A stretch of 61,255 nt of DNA, filler included, from Alphaproteobacteria bacterium (GTDB lineage Bacteria > Pseudomonadota > Alphaproteobacteria > Caedimonadales > UBA9215): NCBI GenBank assembly GCA_024280495.1. It is 9 parts of 9 records of this genome, joined end to end, with 100 filler letters (N's around TTAATTAATTAA, not from the genome) between each part and the next. Parts side by side here need not be neighbours in the genome. Positions count along the whole stretch, not along the records: positions 10,234 to 13,182 come from JAJRPZ010000066.1; 8 more parts are not named here. One strand, written 5' to 3'. Position numbers and translations under genes: made by a program. Under the pieces are notes generated by a model. The model made no database searches. It saw only the letters and a list, made by a program, of their open reading frames with translations, and was not told where the DNA came from. This document shows, one piece after another, positions 3,539 to 57,692 of the stretch (position 1 is its first letter; every line of letters starts with the position of its first letter).

Positions 3539-3638
3539 NNNNNNNNNNNNNNNNNNNNNNNNNNNNNNNNNNNNNNNNNNNNTTAATTAATTAANNNNNN
3601 NNNNNNNNNNNNNNNNNNNNNNNNNNNNNNNNNNNNNN
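3539..3638. other. Artificial contig linker (also at 6843-6942, 10134-10233, 13183-13282, 29222-29321, 37247-37346, 44679-44778, 57593-57692)
   Basis: Identical N44-TTAATTAATTAA-N44 spacer with stops in all six frames. Confidence 0.99.
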
Positions 3639-4184
3639 CCAACGTTCCAGCTTGGCAAGGGGGCGCGCCAAAATATCGGGTAATAAACCAACGGCAACCC
3701 GCCCTCCATCAAGGGGGGGGAGAGGCAGCATATTAAAAACGGCCAGCAACACATTAATATTTAAAGAAAAAGAAAGGGCTTTTGCCAGCAATGGCGTCAT
3801 GATAGCGGGAAAAAATACCAGGGAGTGAAAAAGTATTGCTGAGATAAAAGCCAGTAAAATATTTGTAGCTGGTCCCGCAATGGCCACAAAAACCATATCA
3901 AGACGGGGATTTCTGAGACGGTCAAAACGGACAGGAACTGGTTTAGCATACCCAAAAACAAAAGGAGAATTTACAAAAACCAAAATGGTAGGCAGGACAA
4001 AAGTGCCCATAGGGTCAACATGACGAAAGGGATTTAAGGACAGGCGCCCTTGTTCTTTTGCTGTGGTGTCACCTTTCAAAAGAGCTGCATAACCATGTGC
4101 AGCCTCATGTAACGTGATGGCCAAAATTGCTGGCACACCATAAATAACTAAATTAGTTAGAATTTCAAAAATTTCAATATCCAT
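3639..4184 (-). CDS. Site-2 protease (peptidase M50), 3' truncated
   Basis: HEAAH zinc motif, AGPATN and FNMLPLPPLDG. Confidence 0.93.
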
Positions 4185-5086
4185 TAATTTTTAACCACCA
4201 AGCAATTGATTCGCTCTTGACCCTTAAGATTTTTACATTTTTGAATGGCCGTTGATCTCTCATAGGGACCAAAGTGGACTCGATATTTTACGCCCTTGGG
4301 CTTGCCAAGATCAACACGAACCGTGCGAAAGCTTTCAGATTTAAGCTCTTTTTTGGATTTACGTTGCAATCGCTTACTTTCAATAAGAGCGGCATTTTCC
4401 GTTGAAAGGGAGGCAACCTGAATCCAATAACTTCCCTTTGATTTTTTTTTAAGGGATATTTTTTTCAAAAAAACTTTTTTATTTAAGGTCGTTTTATGCC
4501 TCATCTTTTTTTTTGTTTCTTGGATAGTCATTTCTAAAGTTTTGCGGAATTTCTTTGCTTTCTGAGAATTTTTTTGAGGTGTGTATGACATTATTTCCGT
4601 TAGTGCTGTTGGTGTTTCCACAATGGAAATGTTTTCTTGACTGCTTATAGTTTCTATTTTTGATATTTTTTCTGGTTTTGAAATTTCTTCTATTATAGGC
4701 GTTTTCTCTGTAAATTTTTCCGTTAAAAGAGCTTCTTGAGATACTTGTTTGCTGGGACGCTCTTCTTTTATTCGTAATTGCCCCGGGGGTGTTTTTTTCT
4801 GGTCCCTATCTAATTCAGCATAAAATTCTTTATCGCTGTGGGGGGAGATAATAATATCTTCCTGGCCAGGGGCTTCTTTAAATAAATGTGGATTCATATC
4901 CAAAGTTGTTAGAAGGGGGATATTCATATCATTTAAGGGGGCATTTAGTGTTTTTATGGTCCAAATTCCCATGACAACACCCGTAAAAATAACGGAAATG
5001 ATCGCTATTTTTTTACGAAGAGAGAAAAACGACCCTTGTTTTATCCTTTTTTTGTGACGTTGAGGGGAAGTGATGGGGTTAGACAT
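4184..5086 (-). CDS. SPOR-domain cell division protein (FtsN-like)
   Basis: N-terminal TM helix; C-terminal YWIQVASL...YRVHFGPY...C..L....NCLVV; lies downstream of argS as in alphaproteobacteria. Confidence 0.85.
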   Translation of the reverse strand: MSNPITSPQRHKKRIKQGSFFSLRKKIAIISVIFTGVVMGIWTIKTLNAPLNDMNIPLLTTLDMNPHLFKEAPGQEDIIISPHSDKEFYAELDRDQKKTPPGQLRIKEERPSKQVSQEALLTEKFTEKTPIIEEISKPEKISKIETISSQENISIVETPTALTEIMSYTPQKNSQKAKKFRKTLEMTIQETKKKMRHKTTLNKKVFLKKISLKKKSKGSYWIQVASLSTENAALIESKRLQRKSKKELKSESFRTVRVDLGKPKGVKYRVHFGPYERSTAIQKCKNLKGQERINCLVVKN

Positions 5087-5103: not shown

Positions 5104-6842
5104 TTACATCTTTTCGGGTGCTGAAACACCTAAAAGGGTTAATCCTGATTTGATAACTGTAGCAACTGCTTGGACAATGGCAATATTTTTTTCTGTCACC
5201 TTCTGATTCTCGGTATCAATAAAACGAAGATCCAGATTATCTTTTCCTTTATTCCAAAGGCCGTGAAATTCTGCGGCCACTTCACCAAGATAATAAGTAA
5301 TACGGTGTGGTTCGTTGGTTCGAGCTGCCATTTCAATAATACGTTGCCATTCAGCAAGTTTTCTAATCATAGTGATAAATTCTGGCGCATTCATATGACT
5401 AAAGTCAATCTTTGAAAGAGAAGCACCTGAAACATCAATATCAGGAAAAGCTTTTTGGACATGACGTTTAATAGAATGACACCTTGCGTGGGCGTATTGA
5501 ACATAAAAAACAGGGTTGTCTTTACTTTGTTCAACGGCTTTTTCAAAATCAAAATCAAGGAAGGCATCATTTTTGCGAGATACCATCAAAAAACGCATGG
5601 CATCCAATCCGACTTTTGAAATAGCTTCATGGACGGTAATAAAATTACCATCTCGTTTTGACATTTTAAGGGCAACGCCATTTTGCATAAACCGAACCAT
5701 TTGGCAAAGGATACAATGGACCTCGGCTTTATTATCACTTAAAGCTTTTGTTGCAGCCGTTAGACGTTTTACGTAGCCACCGTGGTCGGCCCCCCAAACA
5801 TTGATAAGTTTTGGAGCTCCACGCTGAAGTTTATCGAGATGATAGGCCATATCACTTGCGAAATAAGTCCAAGATCCATCGGATTTTTTAACGGCACGAT
5901 CGACGTCATCACCAAATTGTTCGGACTTAAAAAGCGTTTGAACACGGGGTTCCCAGTCATCAATTTTCTTGCCTTTGGGTTGCTCAAGCACCCCTTCATA
6001 AATGAGGTTTTTTGCTTGCAAATCAGCAATGGCTTCATTGACTTTACCTGCTTTGACAAGGGTCAATTCCGACGAAAAAACATCTTGATGGATGTTCAAA
6101 GTCGCAAGATCACGCTTAATTAAGGCCATCATAGCATCAATGGCATAGGCCCTAATATCCGCAAGCCAGATGCTTTCATCTTTACCTTCGTATTTAGTGC
6201 CAACTTTTTTAGCCAGGCTTTCCCCAACGGGAATTAAATAATCACCACCATAAGAGCCGAGATCATCAATGCCATGACCCAAAGCTTGTAAATAACGTTT
6301 ATAGGTAGATCGAGAAAGATCATTAGCCTGCCCACCAGCATCATTTATGTAGTACTCGCGTGTCACTTCATGCCCTACTTTTTCCATGAGATTTGCTAGA
6401 ATATCTCCCACGACAGCCACACGACAGTGCCCAATATGAAGGGGGCCCGTTGGATTGGTTGATACATATTCAATATTGACCTTTTGAGGTACCCCTTTGT
6501 CGTTATGACCCATGGTGCTCTTGCCTATATTCGTGCCAGAGGACAGAACGGTTTTAAGCTCTCGGTGCCACACAGAAGACTGAAGACGAATATTTAAAAA
6601 TCCAGGTCCCGCAATCTCAATGGAAGTAATATCAGGGTGTGCTTCTAATTTTTCTTTATAAATTTCCGCAAGGGTACGTGGCGGCATGCCAGCCTCTTTG
6701 CATAAAACCATGGCAATGTTTGTGGCGAGGTCGCCATGTTCTGGATCCTTTGGAGGCTCAACCACAAATCGGCTTAGATCAGCCCCTTTTTTTATGGTGC
6801 CCTCTTTCATAAAAGTTCTTGTTTGTTCTTTCAAAACATCCA
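5104..6842 (-). CDS. argS: Arginine-tRNA ligase, 5' truncated
   Basis: EYVSTNPTGPLHIGH, KMSKR, YVQYAHAR and C-terminal GVSAPEKM. Confidence 0.98.
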
Positions 6843-6942
6843 NNNNNNNNNNNNNNNNNNNNNNNNNNNNNNNNNNNNNNNNNNNNTTAATTAATTAANN
6901 NNNNNNNNNNNNNNNNNNNNNNNNNNNNNNNNNNNNNNNNNN

Positions 6943-7525: not shown

Positions 7526-9427
7526 GTGGCAGATCAAGAACAGCAAGCAGACAATCGGCTTTCACAGGCACTTCATGCTTTTGAAGGATATAGTGTTCTA
7601 ACACGTTTTTTTGTGCCGTTAAACCTTGCTTTAATATTCTCTCTGCACATGATTTGGGTTATTAATAAGTTATTACCTTTTCCAGATAATATTCAAAAGG
7701 CTCTAGCCTTTTTTTTGGGCATAGGATTTTTTTGGTCTGTCAGTCTCATATTATGGTGTGAAAGCCGCAGCTGTAGCAAACGTTCTCAAAAGATAGTTTT
7801 GGGTATAGGGCTGGGCATAATCGCGGCTTTAACCTTTTTTTCCTCGTTTTTTTCAACCAATGTTTTTCTTCTACTCGCTACTAGCGTGGTAATGGTGGCC
7901 ACTGCCGCTTACACAAAAGCAAAAACAGATAACGCCGCTTATTGGCTGTTTAATCATAATTTGTGGCTTGCCGCAGGGTTTGCCATTATTGTTGGTTTAC
8001 TCCTAATGGCTGGTTTTTCCCTTATCCTTGGCACACTTGATTATCTGTTTGGTGGGCGGGTAGGTCGCCAATTTTTCTCGTTTTTTAATGTCATTGCGAT
8101 GGGCGTGATTGCGCCTATTTACTGGCTGTCTTTGATTGGTAAAGACTTTACGCTGCAAGTGGAAGAAGGCGGCGTGTATGATTTTACCTCTGGCGCAGTC
8201 GCCACGATTATTAAATATATTCTTGTACCATTATTGCTATTTTATACTGTTATTCTTTATGGTTATAGCCTCAAAATCCTGTTTACGATGAACATGCCAA
8301 AGGGACAACTTGGCTGGATGGTACTGGCTTATGGTGCGATTGGCACATTGACGGCAACAATGGCGTGGCCTTCACGCAAGACAGGGGGGAGACTCGTCTC
8401 CTTTTTTTGGCGATATTGGTTCTGGCTGTTGCTCGTGCCTTTAGCGCTGATGTTTTTGGCGGTTTATCAGCGTATTGCTCAATATGGGGTGACGTTTGAT
8501 CGCTATAATCTAACGGCGGCTGGTATTTGGCTGCTGACTGTGTCGCTTTATTTTATTGTGTACCGTGAAAAGGCTGACTTGCGCGTCATTCCTGCTTGGC
8601 TGGCTTTCTTTTTCTTTGTCAGTTCTTTTGGTTTTTGGGGGGCAACAGGGCTTTCGAATAAGCATCAGCAAAACATTCTTACGCAGCTGTTAGAAGATCG
8701 CGGTTTTTTAAAAAATAAGGTTCTTGTTAAAGCAAAAGAGCGCAAAAAAGACCTCTCTACAGATGACCAAGCACGGGTTTTTTCTATCGTGCGCTATCTT
8801 GATGATCATGATGGATTAAAACCCCTTAAGCCGTGGTTTAAAAACTCCAAATCGGCTTGGTTTAAAAAAATTGATGTCACGGACGATCAGAAAATATTAA
8901 AAGCTCTGGGGGCTGAAAATGGTTATAAATATGGGCGGCGTGGGCGCTCTGGGAGTGTAGATAGCGGTCTAGCTTTTCGTTATACTGCTACAGATGGTAA
9001 AAGCATGTTTCAAGCCGTTGAGAATATCAAAAATTATGACGAGATGATGGGGCCTATTGCTCTGCATCATTATACGTCAGAGGCAAAGTTACCTAAGATG
9101 CTTAAAAAGGCTGTAAAGGGACAAAATAATTTCTATATTGCGCTGTACCAAAATATTTTGATGCTGCGCGATAAAGATGGTAACGAATTCTCTTTTGACT
9201 TTTTACCCGTAGCCTTAAAATTTTCTAATCACTTTCCTGCACCTTCGCCCACAGCTGAAGAAAGCGATAAGCTTTCAAAACACGCGCCGCTCTGGCTAAA
9301 GAAAACGGTTAATGGCATCGAAATCGCCCTAAAAATCACAGCATTAAACGGTCTGATTTCAAAAGATAAAAAAGAACTAAATTATCTTAATGTGACGTTT
9401 CTGATTTTTAGAGGCAAGGCGGAGTAG
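7526..9427 (+). CDS. DUF4153-like multi-pass membrane protein
   Basis: About 11 TM helices, RIAQYGVTFDRY motif and a soluble C-terminus. Confidence 0.75.
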   Translation: MADQEQQADNRLSQALHAFEGYSVLTRFFVPLNLALIFSLHMIWVINKLLPFPDNIQKALAFFLGIGFFWSVSLILWCESRSCSKRSQKIVLGIGLGIIAALTFFSSFFSTNVFLLLATSVVMVATAAYTKAKTDNAAYWLFNHNLWLAAGFAIIVGLLLMAGFSLILGTLDYLFGGRVGRQFFSFFNVIAMGVIAPIYWLSLIGKDFTLQVEEGGVYDFTSGAVATIIKYILVPLLLFYTVILYGYSLKILFTMNMPKGQLGWMVLAYGAIGTLTATMAWPSRKTGGRLVSFFWRYWFWLLLVPLALMFLAVYQRIAQYGVTFDRYNLTAAGIWLLTVSLYFIVYREKADLRVIPAWLAFFFFVSSFGFWGATGLSNKHQQNILTQLLEDRGFLKNKVLVKAKERKKDLSTDDQARVFSIVRYLDDHDGLKPLKPWFKNSKSAWFKKIDVTDDQKILKALGAENGYKYGRRGRSGSVDSGLAFRYTATDGKSMFQAVENIKNYDEMMGPIALHHYTSEAKLPKMLKKAVKGQNNFYIALYQNILMLRDKDGNEFSFDFLPVALKFSNHFPAPSPTAEESDKLSKHAPLWLKKTVNGIEIALKITALNGLISKDKKELNYLNVTFLIFRGKAE

Positions 9428-10133: not shown

Positions 10134-10233
10134 NNNNNNNNNNNNNNNNNNNNNNNNNNNNNNNNNNNNNNNNNNNNTTAATTAATTAANNNNNNNNNNN
10201 NNNNNNNNNNNNNNNNNNNNNNNNNNNNNNNNN

Positions 10234-10357
10234 AGAGCCGAAACGCCTTTGCCATTCCAACAAACTTATTCTTGGTGTTTTCATTATGAACTCCTTGCTT
10301 AAATATTTGAGTTCATTATAACATAATTAATATCGGCTGAAAATAGTTTATAAGCAT
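10234..10357 (-). mobile_element. Left end of an IS1595-family element; transposase start at 10284
   Basis: AAGGAG followed by ATG gives MKTPRISLLEWQRRFGS, like the IS1595 N-terminus; it begins exactly where the receiver gene diverges from its paralogue and runs into the contig end. Confidence 0.65.
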
Positions 10358-10696
10358 ATTAATTTTTTGATAGAGATTGTCAATGGAATAAGGTTTTTCT
10401 AAAAAATCATCCATTCCTATTGCCAAATATGCTTCTTTGGCCCTTAAATTACCCGTTAATGCCATAATGGGGAAATATTTCAAGTTTTGGCGGATGATTT
10501 TTGTGGCTTCCAAACCATTCATTATGGGCATGTCAATATCCATCAGGCAAAGATCGTATTTTCCTTCATTTCTTTGGGCTTGATCAACAGCCTCCTGGCC
10601 ATTCGAAGCCATGTCAAATTCAAATCCCCATCGCCCCATTAACCTTCCAGCCATCAACTGGAGGATCGCATCATCTTCTGCTATTAAAATTCTCAT
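10316..10696 (-). CDS. Response regulator receiver domain (cassette C), probably truncated by the IS insertion
   Basis: EDD, LMDIDMP, ALTG and EKP motifs; 96/113 aa identical to the 10895-11635 paralogue by manual count; the last 13 aa are unrelated. Confidence 0.9.
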   Translation of the reverse strand: MRILIAEDDAILQLMAGRLMGRWGFEFDMASNGQEAVDQAQRNEGKYDLCLMDIDMPIMNGLEATKIIRQNLKYFPIMALTGNLRAKEAYLAIGMDDFLEKPYSIDNLYQKINMLINYFQPILIML

Positions 10697-10712
10697 AGTG
10701 AAATTACCTCCA

Positions 10713-10839
10713 GCCGAACGCCAAGCTAACCAGAAAAAATGGGGTGACTGGGATTTGTAGCTGACTGCGTAAACACCCAGCTTGAAAAATACTCCGAAAA
10801 ACCGCGCCCCTTTTTTTCTGGTTAAGCGTTTTGTTCGGC
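10713..10839 (-). repeat. Integron attC site 3 (127 bp)
   Basis: Minus strand GCCGAAC-aaaac-GCTTAACCAGAAAAAA...TTTTTTCTGGTTAGC-ttggc-GTTCGGC, with one unpaired base in the left arm. Confidence 0.85.
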
Positions 10840-10894
10840 GATTTATGCCGTTTGATTCATTGATGGCGAGGAATTAAATAAATCTGGTTTTCTA

Positions 10895-11635
10895 TTACTC
10901 ATCCTCAATACGTTTAAAAGCTGGTTCTGGGTATTTTTCTAATTCCGCATCTTCCGATTGTATTAAATTGTTACTTTCCTCTTCTGTAATATATGTTTGA
11001 GGCATAAGGTAATTGCTCTCTTTGTATAGTTCACAACGAGTCGGCTTGTCTGGGTCTCGATTGATGAATGTCGCCATCAATTGTCTTTTCACATTAAAGT
11101 CATGTGATATCTTATTTGTAACATTCTTATGGACGATTAAGGAACTTCCTGGGCCGTCAAAAAATTTGACTCTACGCAAGTTCTTTTTTGCGAGTTCCCT
11201 CAATTCCTGTGCGTGCTGCTGATCCATCGGCATCTCCTTTTTGATAAAAATATCTTTACCGTTAATTTTAAACTTGTAAAACTTTACTGTTAATTCATTA
11301 ATTTTTTGATAAAGATTGTCAATGGAATAAGGTTTTTCTAAATAATCATCCATTCCTATTGCCAAATATACTTCTTTGGCTCTTAAGTTACCCGTTAATG
11401 CCATAATGGGAAAGTAATTCAAATTGCGGCGGATGATTTTTGTTGCTTCAAAACCATTCATTATGGGCATGTCGATATCCATAAGGCACAGGTCATATTC
11501 GCCTTCATGCATTTGAGCTTGTTCAACAGCTTCCTGGCCGTTAGCAGCAATGTCAAAATCAAATCCCCAGCGCCTCATTAACTTTCCGGCTATTCCTTGA
11601 AGGGCAGCATCATCTTCTGCTATTAGAATTCTCAT
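10895..11635 (-). CDS. Response regulator receiver fused to an unrecognised ~130-aa C-terminal domain (cassette B)
   Basis: AGGAGG RBS directly after attC2, then MRILIAEDD; phosphoacceptor residues intact. Confidence 0.9.
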   Translation of the reverse strand: MRILIAEDDAALQGIAGKLMRRWGFDFDIAANGQEAVEQAQMHEGEYDLCLMDIDMPIMNGFEATKIIRRNLNYFPIMALTGNLRAKEVYLAIGMDDYLEKPYSIDNLYQKINELTVKFYKFKINGKDIFIKKEMPMDQQHAQELRELAKKNLRRVKFFDGPGSSLIVHKNVTNKISHDFNVKRQLMATFINRDPDKPTRCELYKESNYLMPQTYITEEESNNLIQSEDAELEKYPEPAFKRIEDE

Positions 11636-11651
11636 ATTAAACTTTCCTCCT

Positions 11652-11784
11652 GCCGAACGCTGCGGCTCAGGGGCGGCAAACAATGCGGGGCAATCAACTA
11701 CGAATTACCACCAGACTTTATGCGGAGCACTGACTTGAGAAAACCGCTGTGCTGTTTGCCGTCCCTTGCAGCCGATTGTTATGT
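11652..11784 (-). repeat. Integron attC site 2 (133 bp)
   Basis: Minus strand ACATAAC-aat-CGGCTGCAAGGGACGGCAAACA...TGTTTGCCGCCCCTGAGCCG-cagc-GTTCGGC; the methyltransferase stop TAA lies in the R'' box. Confidence 0.9.
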
Positions 11785-12363
11785 GCATTGATGTTCTTTT
11801 TTCCCTACTACTAAAAAATGCTTTGGTAATTTATTAATAATTTTTACATGTTTAAATCCAGAATTCACCATTTGTTTATTGACTTGCTCAGGCAAGCATC
11901 TGATTTGCATTGGAGGTCCTTCATCCATATCTTTCTTTTTCCAATCAACAATAAAAATATTTCCCCTAGGTTTCAATATCCTATACGACTCTTCAAGTAT
12001 CAGAGTTGGATTGTCTATTTCATGATGAAGGTTGATCATAAACACTAAGTCTGCGATTTCATCATCAAGTGGTATGGAATCTTCTTCAGTTTTCACAGGA
12101 ATTATATTAGGATGCTTTGGAACAACATTTGCCTCTATCCAGTCGATCATTATTTCCGATACATCACAAGCGTAAATTTTTGAAGGTTTTGCATGCTGGA
12201 GAAATGCAATACTGAAAAATGCCGTTCCTGCACCTATTTCAACAAGTACGTCTGTTTTTTCTATGCTCAATTTGTCCCAAACATAATCAGGAGGGATGTC
12301 TTCCAATCTTTGGGGATTATTCAACTTATGCAATTTTTTGGGGTCAAACTTTTTTTCGTTCAT
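11779..12363 (-). CDS. Class I SAM-dependent methyltransferase (cassette A, gene 2)
   Basis: LVEIGAGTAFF, IYACDVS, NLHHEI and RILKPRGNIFIVDW. Confidence 0.92.
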   Translation of the reverse strand: MNEKKFDPKKLHKLNNPQRLEDIPPDYVWDKLSIEKTDVLVEIGAGTAFFSIAFLQHAKPSKIYACDVSEIMIDWIEANVVPKHPNIIPVKTEEDSIPLDDEIADLVFMINLHHEIDNPTLILEESYRILKPRGNIFIVDWKKKDMDEGPPMQIRCLPEQVNKQMVNSGFKHVKIINKLPKHFLVVGKKEHQCT

Positions 12364-12404
12364 ATGAAGACCTTGAATTTTTTAAATATTATTGTTCACA
12401 TTCA

Positions 12405-12755
12405 TTACCATAAACAAAAAACTTTTTTATCACCTTTCATGGTTGCTCTTATTTTTTCCATGTGCCTTAATGTGGCGATTTCCCGCTGTAAATCACTCAA
12501 CTTTATACCAATTTTTTTTGTCAAAAGTTCTAGTTCGATACCACCTGTTTCTTTTAGTACACCCAAAATATTTTCTTGCATTTTTGTTAAGGTAGAACCA
12601 TTATCAGTCATTGATTTTGCAGTATAAACAGCCCAAGGATCACAAGTTTTCACAGGAGAAAGTACATCCATATAACAATCTTCACACAATATCTGTCCCA
12701 TATATTCCGTTTCGCCGCTTCTCTCGATTTGACAGCTACATTTATCACACTTCAT
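12405..12755 (-). CDS. Cys4 zinc-finger plus winged-HTH-like small protein (cassette A, gene 1)
   Basis: CDKC...CEDC, CDPWAV and a C-terminal HTH-like segment (LELLTKKIGIKLSDLQREIATLRHM); GAGGAG RBS. Confidence 0.7.
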   Translation of the reverse strand: MKCDKCSCQIERSGETEYMGQILCEDCYMDVLSPVKTCDPWAVYTAKSMTDNGSTLTKMQENILGVLKETGGIELELLTKKIGIKLSDLQREIATLRHMEKIRATMKGDKKVFCLW

Positions 12756-12806
12756 TTTTCTCCTCCTCGAATAAAATTTATTTCTTCAAACAGCTATTTT
12801 GCTAGC

Positions 12807-12866
12807 ACATAACACTGCTAATCAGCCGCGCGGTTTTTTGCGTCGGCTGAATTAGCCTTGTTAGAA
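12807..12866 (-). repeat. Integron attC site 1 (60 bp, classic 59-base-element type)
   Basis: Minus strand TTCTAAC-aag-GCTAATTCAGCCGACGC-aaaaaacc-GCGCGGCTGATTAGC-agt-GTTATGT, with two unpaired bases in the left arm. Confidence 0.92.
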
Positions 12867-13182
12867 GTTAAACCTTTTTCGTCTACATGTTCAGGAACCC
12901 GAATAATCCCTTTTAATAGGCTTTTAAGGCCAGACTCGTAGTCATCTGAAAAATCGGCCCACATTCTTTCCTTAAATACGTCAGGAATTTTCCCTTCCCT
13001 CATCTTGAGTGGAATAATAAATGGTCGGGACCGCTCTTTTTCCTGTTCATATGCTATTTCAATCTCTTTATATACCCAACTATTACCTCTATCTTCGGAG
13101 GTTGGAACTAATATCACCCATTGGCTTTCCTTAAGGGCTTCCTCGATTTTTGGCTTTATGCTATCACCCGGCTTAAGTTCAT
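12818..13182 (-). CDS. TIR-domain protein, 5' truncated (cassette gene)
   Basis: Open to the contig end: ELKPGDSIKPKIEEALKESQWVILVPTSEDRGNSWVYKEIEIA...IIPL...WADF; reads into attC1. Confidence 0.85.
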
Positions 13183-13282
13183 NNNNNNNNNNNNNNNNNN
13201 NNNNNNNNNNNNNNNNNNNNNNNNNNTTAATTAATTAANNNNNNNNNNNNNNNNNNNNNNNNNNNNNNNNNNNNNNNNNNNN

Positions 13283-29221: not shown

Positions 29222-29321
29222 NNNNNNNNNNNNNNNNNNNNNNNNNNNNNNNNNNNNNNNNNNNNTTAATTAATTAANNNNNNNNNNNNNNNNNNNNNNN
29301 NNNNNNNNNNNNNNNNNNNNN

Positions 29322-31568: not shown

Positions 31569-33683
31569 ATGTTCAAAGTTCACAAAGAAGAAATACAATG
31601 GGGCGGTCGTACGCTGACCATCGAAACAGGTAAAATTGCTCGTCAAGCTGACGGCGCTGTTATTATTACATACGGAGATACTTCAGTTCTCTGTGCTGCA
31701 GTTTGTTCAAAACAGCCAAAATCCAATTGTGATTTTTTCCCAATGTCCATTCACCACGTTGAAAAATATTATGCGGCGGGTCGCATTCCTGGTGGTTTTT
31801 TTAAAAGAGAAGGAAAACCAACGGAACGCGAAGTTCTGATCTCACGTTTGATTGATCGTCCCATTCGTCCGCTATTCCCAGCAAACTTCCACCACGAAAC
31901 ACAAATCATCACAAATCTTTTGAGCCATGACATGGAAAATGATCCTGATGTCATCGCCTTGATTGGTGCGTCTGCTGCTTTGTCTATTTCAGGGGCACCT
32001 TTTGCGGGGCCAGTGGCTGCTGCGAAAGTTGCACTTGATTGCGAAGGAGCCTTCATTTTAAACCCAACAGTTTCTGAAACCAAAAAGTCTGACCTCGAAT
32101 TGGTTGTTGCTGGTACATCAGAAGGCGTTTTGATGGTCGAATCCGAAGCCTCCGAACTTTCCGAAGAAAAAATGCTCGACGCCTTGATGTTTGCCCATGA
32201 AAGCTTCCAACCTGTGATCGAGATGATCAACAAGTTGAAAAAAGCTGTTGGCAAAGAATCTTGGACAGTGGAAGATACCTCCAAAGATCAAAAAACTGTT
32301 TTCGATGCTGTTAAAAAACAAGGGGAAGACGCTGTTCGCTCTGCTTATCAAATCCAAATTAAGCAAGATCGCGTAACAGCAATTTCCCATGCTAAATCTG
32401 CAGCTCTTGAATCTTTGGTTAAAGAAGATGATCTTTTATTCACAGAAAGCCAAGTTCTTGCACAATTCAAAAAACTTGAAAAATCTGTTGTGCGTGGTGA
32501 TATTATCAAAACGAAAAAGCGTATTGATGGGCGTGATCTTAGCACTGTACGTGCCATTGAGTGTGAGGTAAACGTTGTACCTCGCGCCCACGGAAGTGCC
32601 CTGTTTACCCGCGGTGAAACACAGGCTTTGGTTATAATGACCCTTGGAACCTCTTCCGATGAGCAAATCATCGACAGTATTCAAGGTGAATATCGTGAAC
32701 GCTTTATGTTGCACTATAATTTTCCTCCTTATTCCGTTGGTGAAGCTGGTCGTTTCGGCCCTCCAGGGCGCCGAGAAATAGGTCATGGTAAACTTGCTTG
32801 GCGGGCCTTAAATCCAATGATCCCAACAAAAGCAGAATTTCCGTATACCATGCGCGCCGTTTCTGAAATCACAGAATCCAATGGATCATCTTCTATGGCG
32901 ACGGTTTGTGGTACGTCTTTGGCCATGATGGATGCGGGTGTAACCTTGAAAAAACCTGTTGCTGGTATTGCCATGGGATTGATTCAAGAAGGTGATGATT
33001 TTGCCGTTTTGAGTGATATCTTGGGTGACGAAGATCATTTGGGCGATATGGATTTTAAGGTTGCGGGCACAAAAGACGGTATCACTTCCTTGCAAATGGA
33101 TATCAAAGTGACTTCCATCACAAAAGACATCATGCAGCAAGCCTTGACCCAAGCCAATGCAAACCGTTTACATATCCTTGATGAAATGGCAAAAGCATTA
33201 AATTCTGCTAGGGAAGAACTCAGCGATTCAGCGCCTAAAATGCATAAAATGACCATCAAAAAAGAAAAAATCCGTGATTTGATTGGTCCAGGCGGTAAAA
33301 TGATTCGTCAGATTTGTGAAGAGGCAGATGTTAAAATTGATATTTCTGAAGATGGCGAAGTAGAAATTGCTGGTAACTCTACGGAAGCATTGGATAAAGC
33401 CATTGACATGATCAAATCCGTTTGTGTTGATCCAGAAGTTGGTTCTATATTCCAAGGTAAAGTCATTAAGTTGATGGACTTTGGCGCTATCGTAAGCTTC
33501 ATGGGTGACAAAACAGGTCTGGTTCACATTAGCCAACTCAAGAACGAACGTGTTGAAAAAGTTGCTGATGTTGTGAAAGATGGCGATTCCGTATGGGTCA
33601 AAATCCTTGAAGTTGATCCAAAAGGCAAGGTACGCCTCAGCATGAAAACCTTGGATCAAAAAACAGGTAAAGAAGTTAAATAA
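31569..33683 (+). CDS. pnp: Polyribonucleotide nucleotidyltransferase
   Basis: RLIDRPIRPLF, RREIGHG, DEDHLGDMDFKVAGT, and KH and S1 domains. Confidence 0.99.
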   Translation: MFKVHKEEIQWGGRTLTIETGKIARQADGAVIITYGDTSVLCAAVCSKQPKSNCDFFPMSIHHVEKYYAAGRIPGGFFKREGKPTEREVLISRLIDRPIRPLFPANFHHETQIITNLLSHDMENDPDVIALIGASAALSISGAPFAGPVAAAKVALDCEGAFILNPTVSETKKSDLELVVAGTSEGVLMVESEASELSEEKMLDALMFAHESFQPVIEMINKLKKAVGKESWTVEDTSKDQKTVFDAVKKQGEDAVRSAYQIQIKQDRVTAISHAKSAALESLVKEDDLLFTESQVLAQFKKLEKSVVRGDIIKTKKRIDGRDLSTVRAIECEVNVVPRAHGSALFTRGETQALVIMTLGTSSDEQIIDSIQGEYRERFMLHYNFPPYSVGEAGRFGPPGRREIGHGKLAWRALNPMIPTKAEFPYTMRAVSEITESNGSSSMATVCGTSLAMMDAGVTLKKPVAGIAMGLIQEGDDFAVLSDILGDEDHLGDMDFKVAGTKDGITSLQMDIKVTSITKDIMQQALTQANANRLHILDEMAKALNSAREELSDSAPKMHKMTIKKEKIRDLIGPGGKMIRQICEEADVKIDISEDGEVEIAGNSTEALDKAIDMIKSVCVDPEVGSIFQGKVIKLMDFGAIVSFMGDKTGLVHISQLKNERVEKVADVVKDGDSVWVKILEVDPKGKVRLSMKTLDQKTGKEVK

Positions 33684-37246: not shown

Positions 37247-37347
37247 NNNNNNNNNNNNNNNNNNNNNNNNNNNNNNNNNNNNNNNNNNNNTTAATTAATT
37301 AANNNNNNNNNNNNNNNNNNNNNNNNNNNNNNNNNNNNNNNNNNNNA

Positions 37348-44678: not shown

Positions 44679-44778
44679 NNNNNNNNNNNNNNNNNNNNNN
44701 NNNNNNNNNNNNNNNNNNNNNNTTAATTAATTAANNNNNNNNNNNNNNNNNNNNNNNNNNNNNNNNNNNNNNNNNNNN

Positions 44779-57592: not shown

Positions 57593-57692
57593 NNNNNNNN
57601 NNNNNNNNNNNNNNNNNNNNNNNNNNNNNNNNNNNNTTAATTAATTAANNNNNNNNNNNNNNNNNNNNNNNNNNNNNNNNNNNNNNNNNNNN

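Follow-up and report, generated by a model that had tools for sequence, protein, structure and literature searches.

How far can a mobile gene cassette carry a signalling function, and when two closely similar response-regulator genes stand one behind the other in what looks like an integron, do they form a system? Beyond clinical integrons, most cassettes are still without a known function, and those that are understood serve mainly in resistance, as toxin-antitoxin modules or in phage defence. The question is raised by contig C91 (2,949 bp) of a bin assigned to a small alphaproteobacterium, in which an earlier note had pointed to two tandem orphan receiver genes as mobile cargo. C91 occupies positions 10234-13182 of the window, by which is meant the whole stretch of 61,255 bases analysed here; it is composed of nine pieces split by eight N44-TTAATTAATTAA-N44 linkers, and every piece is one whole contig of the 99-contig, 1.14-Mb bin. 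Because the window consists of joined contigs, inferences drawn from its neighbouring parts are not applicable to the finding, which is confined to C91. The answer reached is that C91 is quite probably a fragment of an integron cassette array, containing one complete cassette for a two-domain response regulator (RR2) and, behind it, a separately acquired allele (RR1) that has been cut by an insertion sequence (IS).

The probable cassette array on C91

Read along the minus strand, the contig presents the 3' end of a TIR-domain gene, a first attC site (attC_a), a two-gene cassette, attC_b, RR2, attC_c, RR1 and finally foreign DNA, with all five open reading frames (ORFs) and all three attC sites on that strand (Table 1). 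The two response-regulator units open alike, with GTTCGGC-A-GGAGG-AAAGTTTAAT-ATGAGAATT in RR2 (ATG at 11635) and GTTCGGC-T-GGAGG-TAATTTCACT-ATGAGAATT in RR1 (ATG at 10696), which confirms in both minus-strand units the shared start GTTCGGC-N-GGAGG-N10-ATGAGAATT that had first drawn attention to the locus. As to the end points originally given for the pair, 11657 marks the TT at the G|TT crossover in attC_b, and 10316 marks where the RR1 ORF ends.

The three sites are imperfect palindromes with ..AAC and GTT.. cores, R''/R' and L''/L' hairpins, an unpaired spacer and a variable loop. The hairpin of attC_a, which has one extra base in its L'' arm, folds at -17 kcal/mol (z -5.7 against shuffles) and that of attC_c at -27 kcal/mol (z -4.8); folding of attC_b (11784-11652) is not far above that of shuffles (z -1.3). 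In both complete cassettes, R'' is complementary at 7/7 positions to the bases that open its own cassette (GTTATGT/ACATAAC and GTTCGGC/GCCGAAC), as would be expected if the unit moves through a circular intermediate, and the same complementarity is found at four homologue loci (L005, L007, L019 and L023). An exact 7-mer complementarity search of 42 such loci gave matches in five, four of them at attC sites that are model-supported or visible by eye and one probably due to chance; as about as many (~5) decoy matches were returned, this search is not a blind test.

Covariance models were built from 15 sites of the contig and the homologue loci (A3/R1) and from 20 matches (A5/R2, hereafter R2). 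In a MAFFT alignment of the 15 sites, the L stem pairs in 85.2% of cells compared with 67% in shuffles, of which none of 500 reaches the observed value; slid-partner controls pair at 24-47%, and changes on both sides occur in 9 of the 14 pairs. Over the whole bin R2 gives three matches, all on C91 and all belonging to its seed. The cassette signal is more than chance: the 2.9 kb of C91 hold three attC-type sites, the rest of the bin none. Two hairpin heuristics tried as counting tools were dropped, having returned 12 real against 12 decoy hits bin-wide at the score chosen, while missing sites visible by eye.

Sequencing reads add a view of how these sites are distributed. No public run contains more than 21% of the contig's words. 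Across four runs attC_a and attC_b recur in numerous contigs of hydrothermal-vent metagenomes, whose depths add up to very high values, and read contigs part from C91 at the attC borders, leaving loose ends at 11780-11785, 11652-11663, 12809-12820 and 12853-12863. Repetition of the two sites with flanks that diverge at their borders indicates an abundant attC family in vent communities. A read contig of 912 nt (X7) carries the methyltransferase cassette found upstream of RR2 at 94% identity and stops at 12815, and the receiver pieces of another (X3) lose their match at 11229 and 11282, both towards the output domain. This pattern fits common attC sites, modular cassettes and module exchange. 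Positions 12907-13182 were uncovered in the four runs, and X2 shows a depth of ~1 on each of the two sides of the junction between RR1 and the inserted element.

RR2, a receiver joined to a new C-terminal domain

RR2 combines a receiver (residues 1-115) with a conserved C-terminal domain of ~130 residues (about 118-246). In RR2 and RR1 the Pfam Response_reg match spans the whole model (81.4 and 78.2 bits, cut-off 30.2), and both copies retain E7-D8-D9, D53, T81 and K101-P102 when read against the family alignment, in which D53, P57, G61, P76 and K101 are invariant across 75 sequences. BLASTP gives 98/119 identities between the two proteins, equal to 96/113 over the receiver, and so the original description of receivers with this degree of identity and intact phosphorylation residues holds. 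The best scores of the RR2 receiver are with those of hybrid kinases, ArcB, LuxN and BarA among them. The contig encodes no kinase, again as first described; the seven HisKA matches of the bin over cut-off lie on other contigs.

Among homologues in a set of 5.8 billion proteins, the best 120 of 695 are nearly all 242-250 residues long and 50-90% identical to RR2, with 75-100% query coverage that takes in both domains. A search with the C-terminal domain alone (E<=1e-3, 1.84 billion proteins) yields 52 representative relatives, most of them receiver-fused proteins of ~245 residues with the domain at about 113-240, the rest being shorter and consisting mainly of the domain itself. Pfam recognizes only the receiver in the 59 alignment members and the C-terminal domain in none of them, and no NCBIfam or PADLOC model matches the domain either.

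Structure prediction gives a well-defined model: AlphaFold2 assigns RR2 a mean predicted local distance difference test (pLDDT) score of 91.4, and the C-terminal domain alone 85.5. With the domain as query, Foldseek found nothing in the PDB at E<=1e-3 (best E 0.35), and with the whole of RR2 it found receivers only. In a second structural search the best Z was 5.1 (3ulf_A, LOV/PAS; root-mean-square deviation 3.3 Å over 73 residues), a background-level value. A PDB sequence search gave one match, SSO2273, at E 0.035, and the ESM Atlas returned no usable result for the domain. Conservation of the polar positions H169, N171, D179, C201 and E228 suggests that these residues may form a binding or catalytic site.

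RR1, the remnant of a second allele

RR1 leaves the family at codon 113, at the junction between receiver and C-terminal domain. When the contig is compared by BLASTN with 35 homologue loci, the RR1 matches that reach the 3' part all stop at 10357-10363 (14 loci), and in those 14 loci the gene continues into the C-terminal domain. The last 13 residues of RR1 are not present in any other protein of 69-221 residues in the 5.8-billion-protein set. From 10357 to the contig end, the 124 nt are identical throughout (124/124) to two contig ends of another genome, G041, with unrelated flanks, and the identity boundary of the three copies lies at ATGCTTATAAAC. This element end carries a promoter-like site (10343-10315) with an extended -10, followed by the start of an ORF. 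DNA that recurs unchanged in three contexts, and at which three assemblies break off, is a mobile repeat, most simply the end of an insertion sequence. Its N-terminal peptide, 22 residues in length, may be that of an IS1595-type transposase. A third element copy (L254) is partial, at 83%, and no transposase lies beside it.

The RR1 remnant is an IS-truncated gene of the same kind as RR2, and the remainder could still be made as a full receiver fold. The break point coincides with a conserved ELTVK linker between the domains. Frameshifted or truncated family copies are common in other genomes too (L029:3542-4347, L032:4004-4168 and L035:4007-4459), and cassette copies of the family seem to decay often.

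The two copies have separate histories. Their DNA aligns over 364 nt at 86%, in register and with a spacing of 939 bp, and 22 of the 39 differing codons are synonymous. RR1 is 94.7% identical in amino acids to the homologue P0027 and 94.8% identical in nucleotides to locus L007, its nearest relative, compared with 85% to RR2, and a receiver tree of 53 rows pairs RR1 with P0027 (support 90/86) and RR2 with P0041 (100/99). As each has a closer relative elsewhere, they are distinct alleles and no fresh duplication, in agreement with the earlier note. Comparison of domain identities between family proteins P0002-P0060 and window 10316-11635 further shows that receiver and output are uncoupled: P0027 has a receiver 88-95% identical to the window copies and an output domain only 50% identical to that of RR2, while P0016 has the reverse pattern (receiver 58%, output 81%). 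This uncoupling across the family indicates that modules have been exchanged at the ELTVK linker.

Recurrence of the family among integron cassettes

Whether the family is cassette cargo can be judged from 42 of its loci, L003-L037 from species genomes and L083-L089 from metagenomes, the latter from a scan in which family members occurred at 7 of 80 loci and the rest were generic receivers. Over these loci and the window, R2 at E<=1e-3 gives 29 matches, 28 of which are on the gene's strand. At least one match is present at 13 of the 42 loci, and at ten of the 42 the gene has a match no more than 200 nt away (L005, L011, L019, L022, L023, L025, L029, L083, L085 and L086). Those ten include Bacteroidales, Nitrospinia, Candidatus Desulfatibia, Ectothiorhodospiraceae, Methylobacter and the isolate Desulfobacter vibrioformis DSM 8776, and in two of them (L019 and L023) an array is plain from its chained R'/R'' complementarity. 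By comparison, a control set of 100 loci (537 kb), taken from the surroundings of other receiver genes, gave one match at E<=0.01, at L038, itself a family fragment. Independently of any model, DNA homology of the RR2 cassette to L003-L008 begins at 11657-11660, which is the G|TT crossover, in genomes labelled Desulfosalsimonadaceae, Desulfobulbia, Bacteroidales, Pseudomonadota, Spirochaetaceae and Deltaproteobacteria. The family is often flanked by attC sites in several phyla, and the proposal of integron-type cassettes is borne out by this recurrence together with the attC sites and cassette boundaries on C91.

Other copies are solitary. The cassette start GTTCGGC is found upstream of the gene in L003, L007 and L008, and in a mutated form in L004 and L006; an R'' remnant, GCCGA(AC), lies downstream in L007 and L008, the latter ending inside R''. 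With the cassette start kept in several, and an R'' remnant in two, these solitary copies look like cassettes that may have settled outside integrons. A wider account is possible, if still short of probable: two-domain response regulators of a widespread family, with phosphorylatable receivers and an output domain of unsolved fold, would be traded between phyla as single-gene cassettes, their modules reshuffled at ELTVK and some copies fixed chromosomally.

The surroundings of the family are varied. No conserved kinase or Hpt partner was found in 32 annotated homologue neighbourhoods; in one of them, L010, other receivers and, on the opposite strand, a PAS histidine kinase are encoded within ~3 kb. 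The usual neighbours are toxin-antitoxin genes (RelE, BrnT, PIN, ParE) and genes for Fic, RadC, HEPN, nSTAND, Cas3/WYL and IS functions. In a Candidatus Thiodiazotropha metagenome-assembled genome (MAG; L015), a true IntI is encoded at 5480-6493 (447 bits, cut-off 265), with the family gene (4013-4741) convergent with it and ~740 nt beyond its 3' end; a strong attC occupies 8500-8619 on the other side of IntI, and RelE/helix-turn-helix (HTH) and Fic genes lie upstream.

Alternative explanations

Several observations weigh against assigning C91 to an integron and the family to cassette cargo. A profile search found no integron integrase in the bin (best match 59 bits against a cut-off of 265, on a different contig). 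The contig has no integrase, attI or Pc promoter and ends inside its first cassette; since attI and Pc are not visible on 2.9 kb, the assignment depends on the attC sites, and the same shortness means that the absence of intI says little. The model seeds were picked with a hairpin heuristic, so that pairing is partly built in, and a fairer measure is given by the covariation and by the slid controls; likewise, 20 of the 29 R2 matches are training sequences and eight are new, and the model may miss sites. Pfam recognizes no transposase, nor anything else, in the 22 available residues of the inserted element's ORF, and 10630-10827 were uncovered in the four read runs, so that the RR2-attC-RR1 link has no independent support. 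The count of attC sites among homologues, proposed in the earlier note as the check on mobility, was divided: the sites at 13 loci and their proximity to the gene at ten speak for cassettes, and the R2 model finds no integron signature at 24 of the 42. Even with R2 filters off no site appeared in L003, L004, L006, L007, L008, L016, L017 and L026. Some copies stand between housekeeping genes, namely gltX (L012/L013), cysS (L004) and the arg genes argF/argH (L006), in some cases on long contigs, and that of L008 follows a tRNA and a tadA-like deaminase. Together with the kinase and receivers near L010, these loci would suit an ordinary chromosomal response regulator that is not mobile and whose hairpins are unrelated repeats or terminators. 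That explanation is very unlikely in view of the AAC/GTT cores of the hairpins, their strand bias and their complementarity to the start of the next cassette, of control loci that are essentially hairpin-free, and of the cassette-end remnants of solitary copies; moreover, the family is patchy, at 50-83% identity, in Desulfobacterota, Bacteroidales, Spirochaetaceae, Nitrospinia, Gammaproteobacteria and Scalindua.

The uncovered stretch between RR2 and RR1, on a 2.9-kb MAG contig that terminates in a repeat, would also suit a chimera in which assembly joined alleles from two strains; a related idea is that the contig is foreign to this genome. As an explanation of the arrangement, an artefact of assembly or binning is improbable: the two copies differ at 52 of 366 positions with a longest common exact run of 30 nt, the attC_c/RR1 junction and attC_b/RR2 have just 9 exact bases in common, and the complementarity of the cassette ends is consistent with a genuine array. 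Two intact stand-alone receivers acting together in tandem cassettes, the system originally envisaged, might still be argued from the completeness of both receivers by Pfam, from their phosphorylation residues and from the family-derived part of RR1, which ends near the end of helix alpha5 and in the structural model could fold as a single-domain receiver. There is very little room for such a system, with RR2 a protein of 246 residues whose second domain is conserved in its 120 best relatives, RR1 departing from every relative into a repeat end found elsewhere, and the copies not being each other's nearest relatives; what remains of it is one receiver with a C-terminal domain and one IS-truncated remnant. 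It could also be supposed, in line with integrons as repositories of anti-phage and toxin-antitoxin genes, that RR2 is a phosphorylation-gated effector of defence or toxin-like function, given the TIR and mad2-like methyltransferase genes beside it, the toxin-antitoxin, Fic, HEPN and nSTAND genes near its homologues and the conserved His, Asn, Asp, Cys and Glu of the C-terminal domain. This too is unlikely, as RR2 matches none of the PADLOC families at E<=0.01 (library of 2023), no partner gene is conserved beside the family, and structure searches revealed no nuclease, NADase or other effector fold. An array fragment with one complete cassette and one IS-cut allele accordingly remains the preferred account of C91.

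The host of the array

For mis-binning taken by itself the chances are about even. A PNPase-like protein of the bin (window 31569-33680) is nearest to Alphaproteobacteria, at up to 63% identity; the RR2 family occurs in 0 of 40 relatives of the bin, and IntI in 1 of 40. The end of the inserted element is 100% identical to sequence in G041, a Deltaproteobacteria MAG of 3.6 Mb, which also has three R2 attC matches, a partial intI and 87-94% matches to attC_a. The host is thus uncertain, the bin being a small alphaproteobacterium and the mobile parts of the contig matching Deltaproteobacteria. Mis-binning would alter the host and not the nature of the element.

In G041, the integron-integrase-like frame (C520:10219-10755) covers only profile positions 90-268, contains one in-frame TAG and scores 238 bits, below cut-off; it may be a broken intI. 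A relative of the bin in the same order (G022, 67% complete) encodes a full integron integrase of 460 bits at C36:1467-2408 (L165), on a contig of 3.9 kb where the R2 model finds no attC site.

A proposed route from cassette to function

A sequence of events can be proposed for the locus. The RR1 allele would have been acquired separately, and the insertion sequence would then have landed at codon 113. Transcription of the RR2 cassette would come from upstream, through Pc or read-through, since no promoter is evident within the cassette, which does carry a strong GGAGG site, 10 nt ahead of its ATG. Its expression may depend on its place in the array, as the earlier note proposed; a promoter and terminator scan of the contig found no excess (8 found, 9.4 expected). 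As all phosphorylation residues are kept and the receiver resembles those of hybrid kinases that talk to Hpt, the phosphoryl group for D53 is expected to come from host kinases, Hpt proteins or acetyl phosphate. Phosphorylation of D53 would switch the C-terminal domain, for which a ligand- or partner-binding output is the best guess. Should the truncated RR1 be expressed, its product would be a lone receiver, capable only of taking or draining phosphoryl groups.

Other features of the contig

The TIR-domain gene is cut off on its 5' side by the edge of the contig and overlaps attC_a with its final codons. Upstream of RR2, a single attC pair encloses a cassette of two ORFs (11779-12755). The first of these has an N-terminal Cys-rich motif and a weakly winged-helix-like C-terminus, with weak matches only, to NCBIfam cas_HTH (E 0.004; Csa3/CasR-like HTH) and PADLOC CasR (E 2e-4).

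Table 1. Positions of the features of C91, of the linkers in the window and of solitary family copies in their loci
Feature	Position	Strand	Basis or remark
TIR-domain gene, 3' part	12818..13182	-	Pfam TIR_2 E 1.7e-12; PADLOC TIR models E down to 3e-11
attC_a, 60 nt, R'' TTCTAAC ... R' GTTATGT	12807..12866	-	R2 34.6 bits, in model seed
First ORF of two-gene cassette, 116 residues	12405..12755	-	ORF call
Second ORF, class I S-adenosylmethionine-dependent methyltransferase, 194 residues	11779..12363	-	Pfam Methyltransf_11 E 6.8e-14; PADLOC mad2 E 1e-15
attC_b, 133 nt, R'' ACATAAC ... R' GTTCGGC	11652..11784	-	R2 55.4 bits
RR2 cassette, complete, single-gene, 939 bp	10719..11657	-	From TT after attC_b crossover to G of attC_c
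RR2 gene, 246 residues	10895..11635	-	Receiver and C-terminal domain
attC_c, 127 nt, R'' GCCGAAC ... R' GTTCGGC	10713..10839	-	R2 57.1 bits
RR1 cassette remnant: cassette start, ribosome-binding site, codons 1-113	10358..10718	-	Homology end
RR1 ORF, 126 residues, receiver only	10316..10696	-	Last 13 codons and stop from inserted element
Insertion-sequence-like repeat end: promoter-like site and ORF start (ATG 10284, MKTPRISLLEWQRRFGS...)	10234..10357	-	Runs off contig
Linkers	3539-3638, 6843-6942, 10134-10233, 13183-13282, 29222-29321, 37247-37346, 44679-44778, 57593-57692		Contig joins, adjacency not real
Solitary copies	L004:4001-4744, L006:4001-4738, L008:4001-4741, L012 and L013:4001-4750		

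Significance and relation to known systems

What makes the locus interesting is its family of response regulators, uncharacterised so far, which have a new output domain and turn up repeatedly as integron cargo. A recurring cassette-borne signalling protein would add regulation to what integrons exchange and, if the account is true, ready-made branches or sinks of His-Asp phosphorelays could be gained by site-specific recombination. RR2, of modest length and with an output domain predicted to fold well, is a small and tractable target for structural and phosphotransfer work. The solitary copies that bear cassette-end remnants beside housekeeping genes would exemplify cassettes settling outside integrons. 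For the window itself the lesson is modest: a supposed tandem system proves to be one gene and an IS-broken remnant, in a host whose assignment is doubtful. A literature search found no paper that describes response-regulator cassettes as a family, and supplementary tables of surveys, which lay outside the search, could list such cassettes; two cassette surveys (PMC3146285, PMC10963911) mention signal transduction in passing among cassette functions.

Among characterized protein families, the closest structural rows for the C-terminal domain of RR2 are those of the PAS/LOV sensor domains, although its Z lies below the level typical of chance and no sequence signal accompanies it. RR2 resembles the response regulators of PF00072 in having a full receiver with the acidic pocket, D53, T81 and K101 and in the placing of its output C-terminal to helix alpha5. 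It is set apart from them by an output without a Pfam, NCBIfam, PADLOC or clear PDB match, by the lack of an adjoining kinase and by its residence in a single-gene cassette.

Among mobile elements, the nearest counterparts of C91 are the CALIN, which the IntegronFinder paper defines as clusters of attC sites without an integrase nearby; in the same source neighbouring IS are given for 38% of CALIN, and cassettes are described as mostly without database homologues. C91 is like the CALIN in having at least two attC sites in the same orientation, co-oriented ORFs without promoters, no intI nearby and an IS at its edge, and with no IntI in the bin it is classed among CALIN-type fragments rather than complete integrons. 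It differs in that the missing integrase may reflect its 2.9-kb length and in that its attC sites were called with a small purpose-built model instead of that of IntegronFinder. For the solitary copies the comparison is with the SALIN/attG elements, as outlined in a preprint (bioRxiv 10.1101/2022.09.11.507474). Insertion of these copies at attG sites by an integrase is so far only a lead, and no intact attC was detected beside those of L003, L004, L006, L007 and L008. Where these five agree with what that preprint outlines is in being present singly, whether amid core genes or on short contigs, and in beginning at the G|TT boundary or a mutated form of it.

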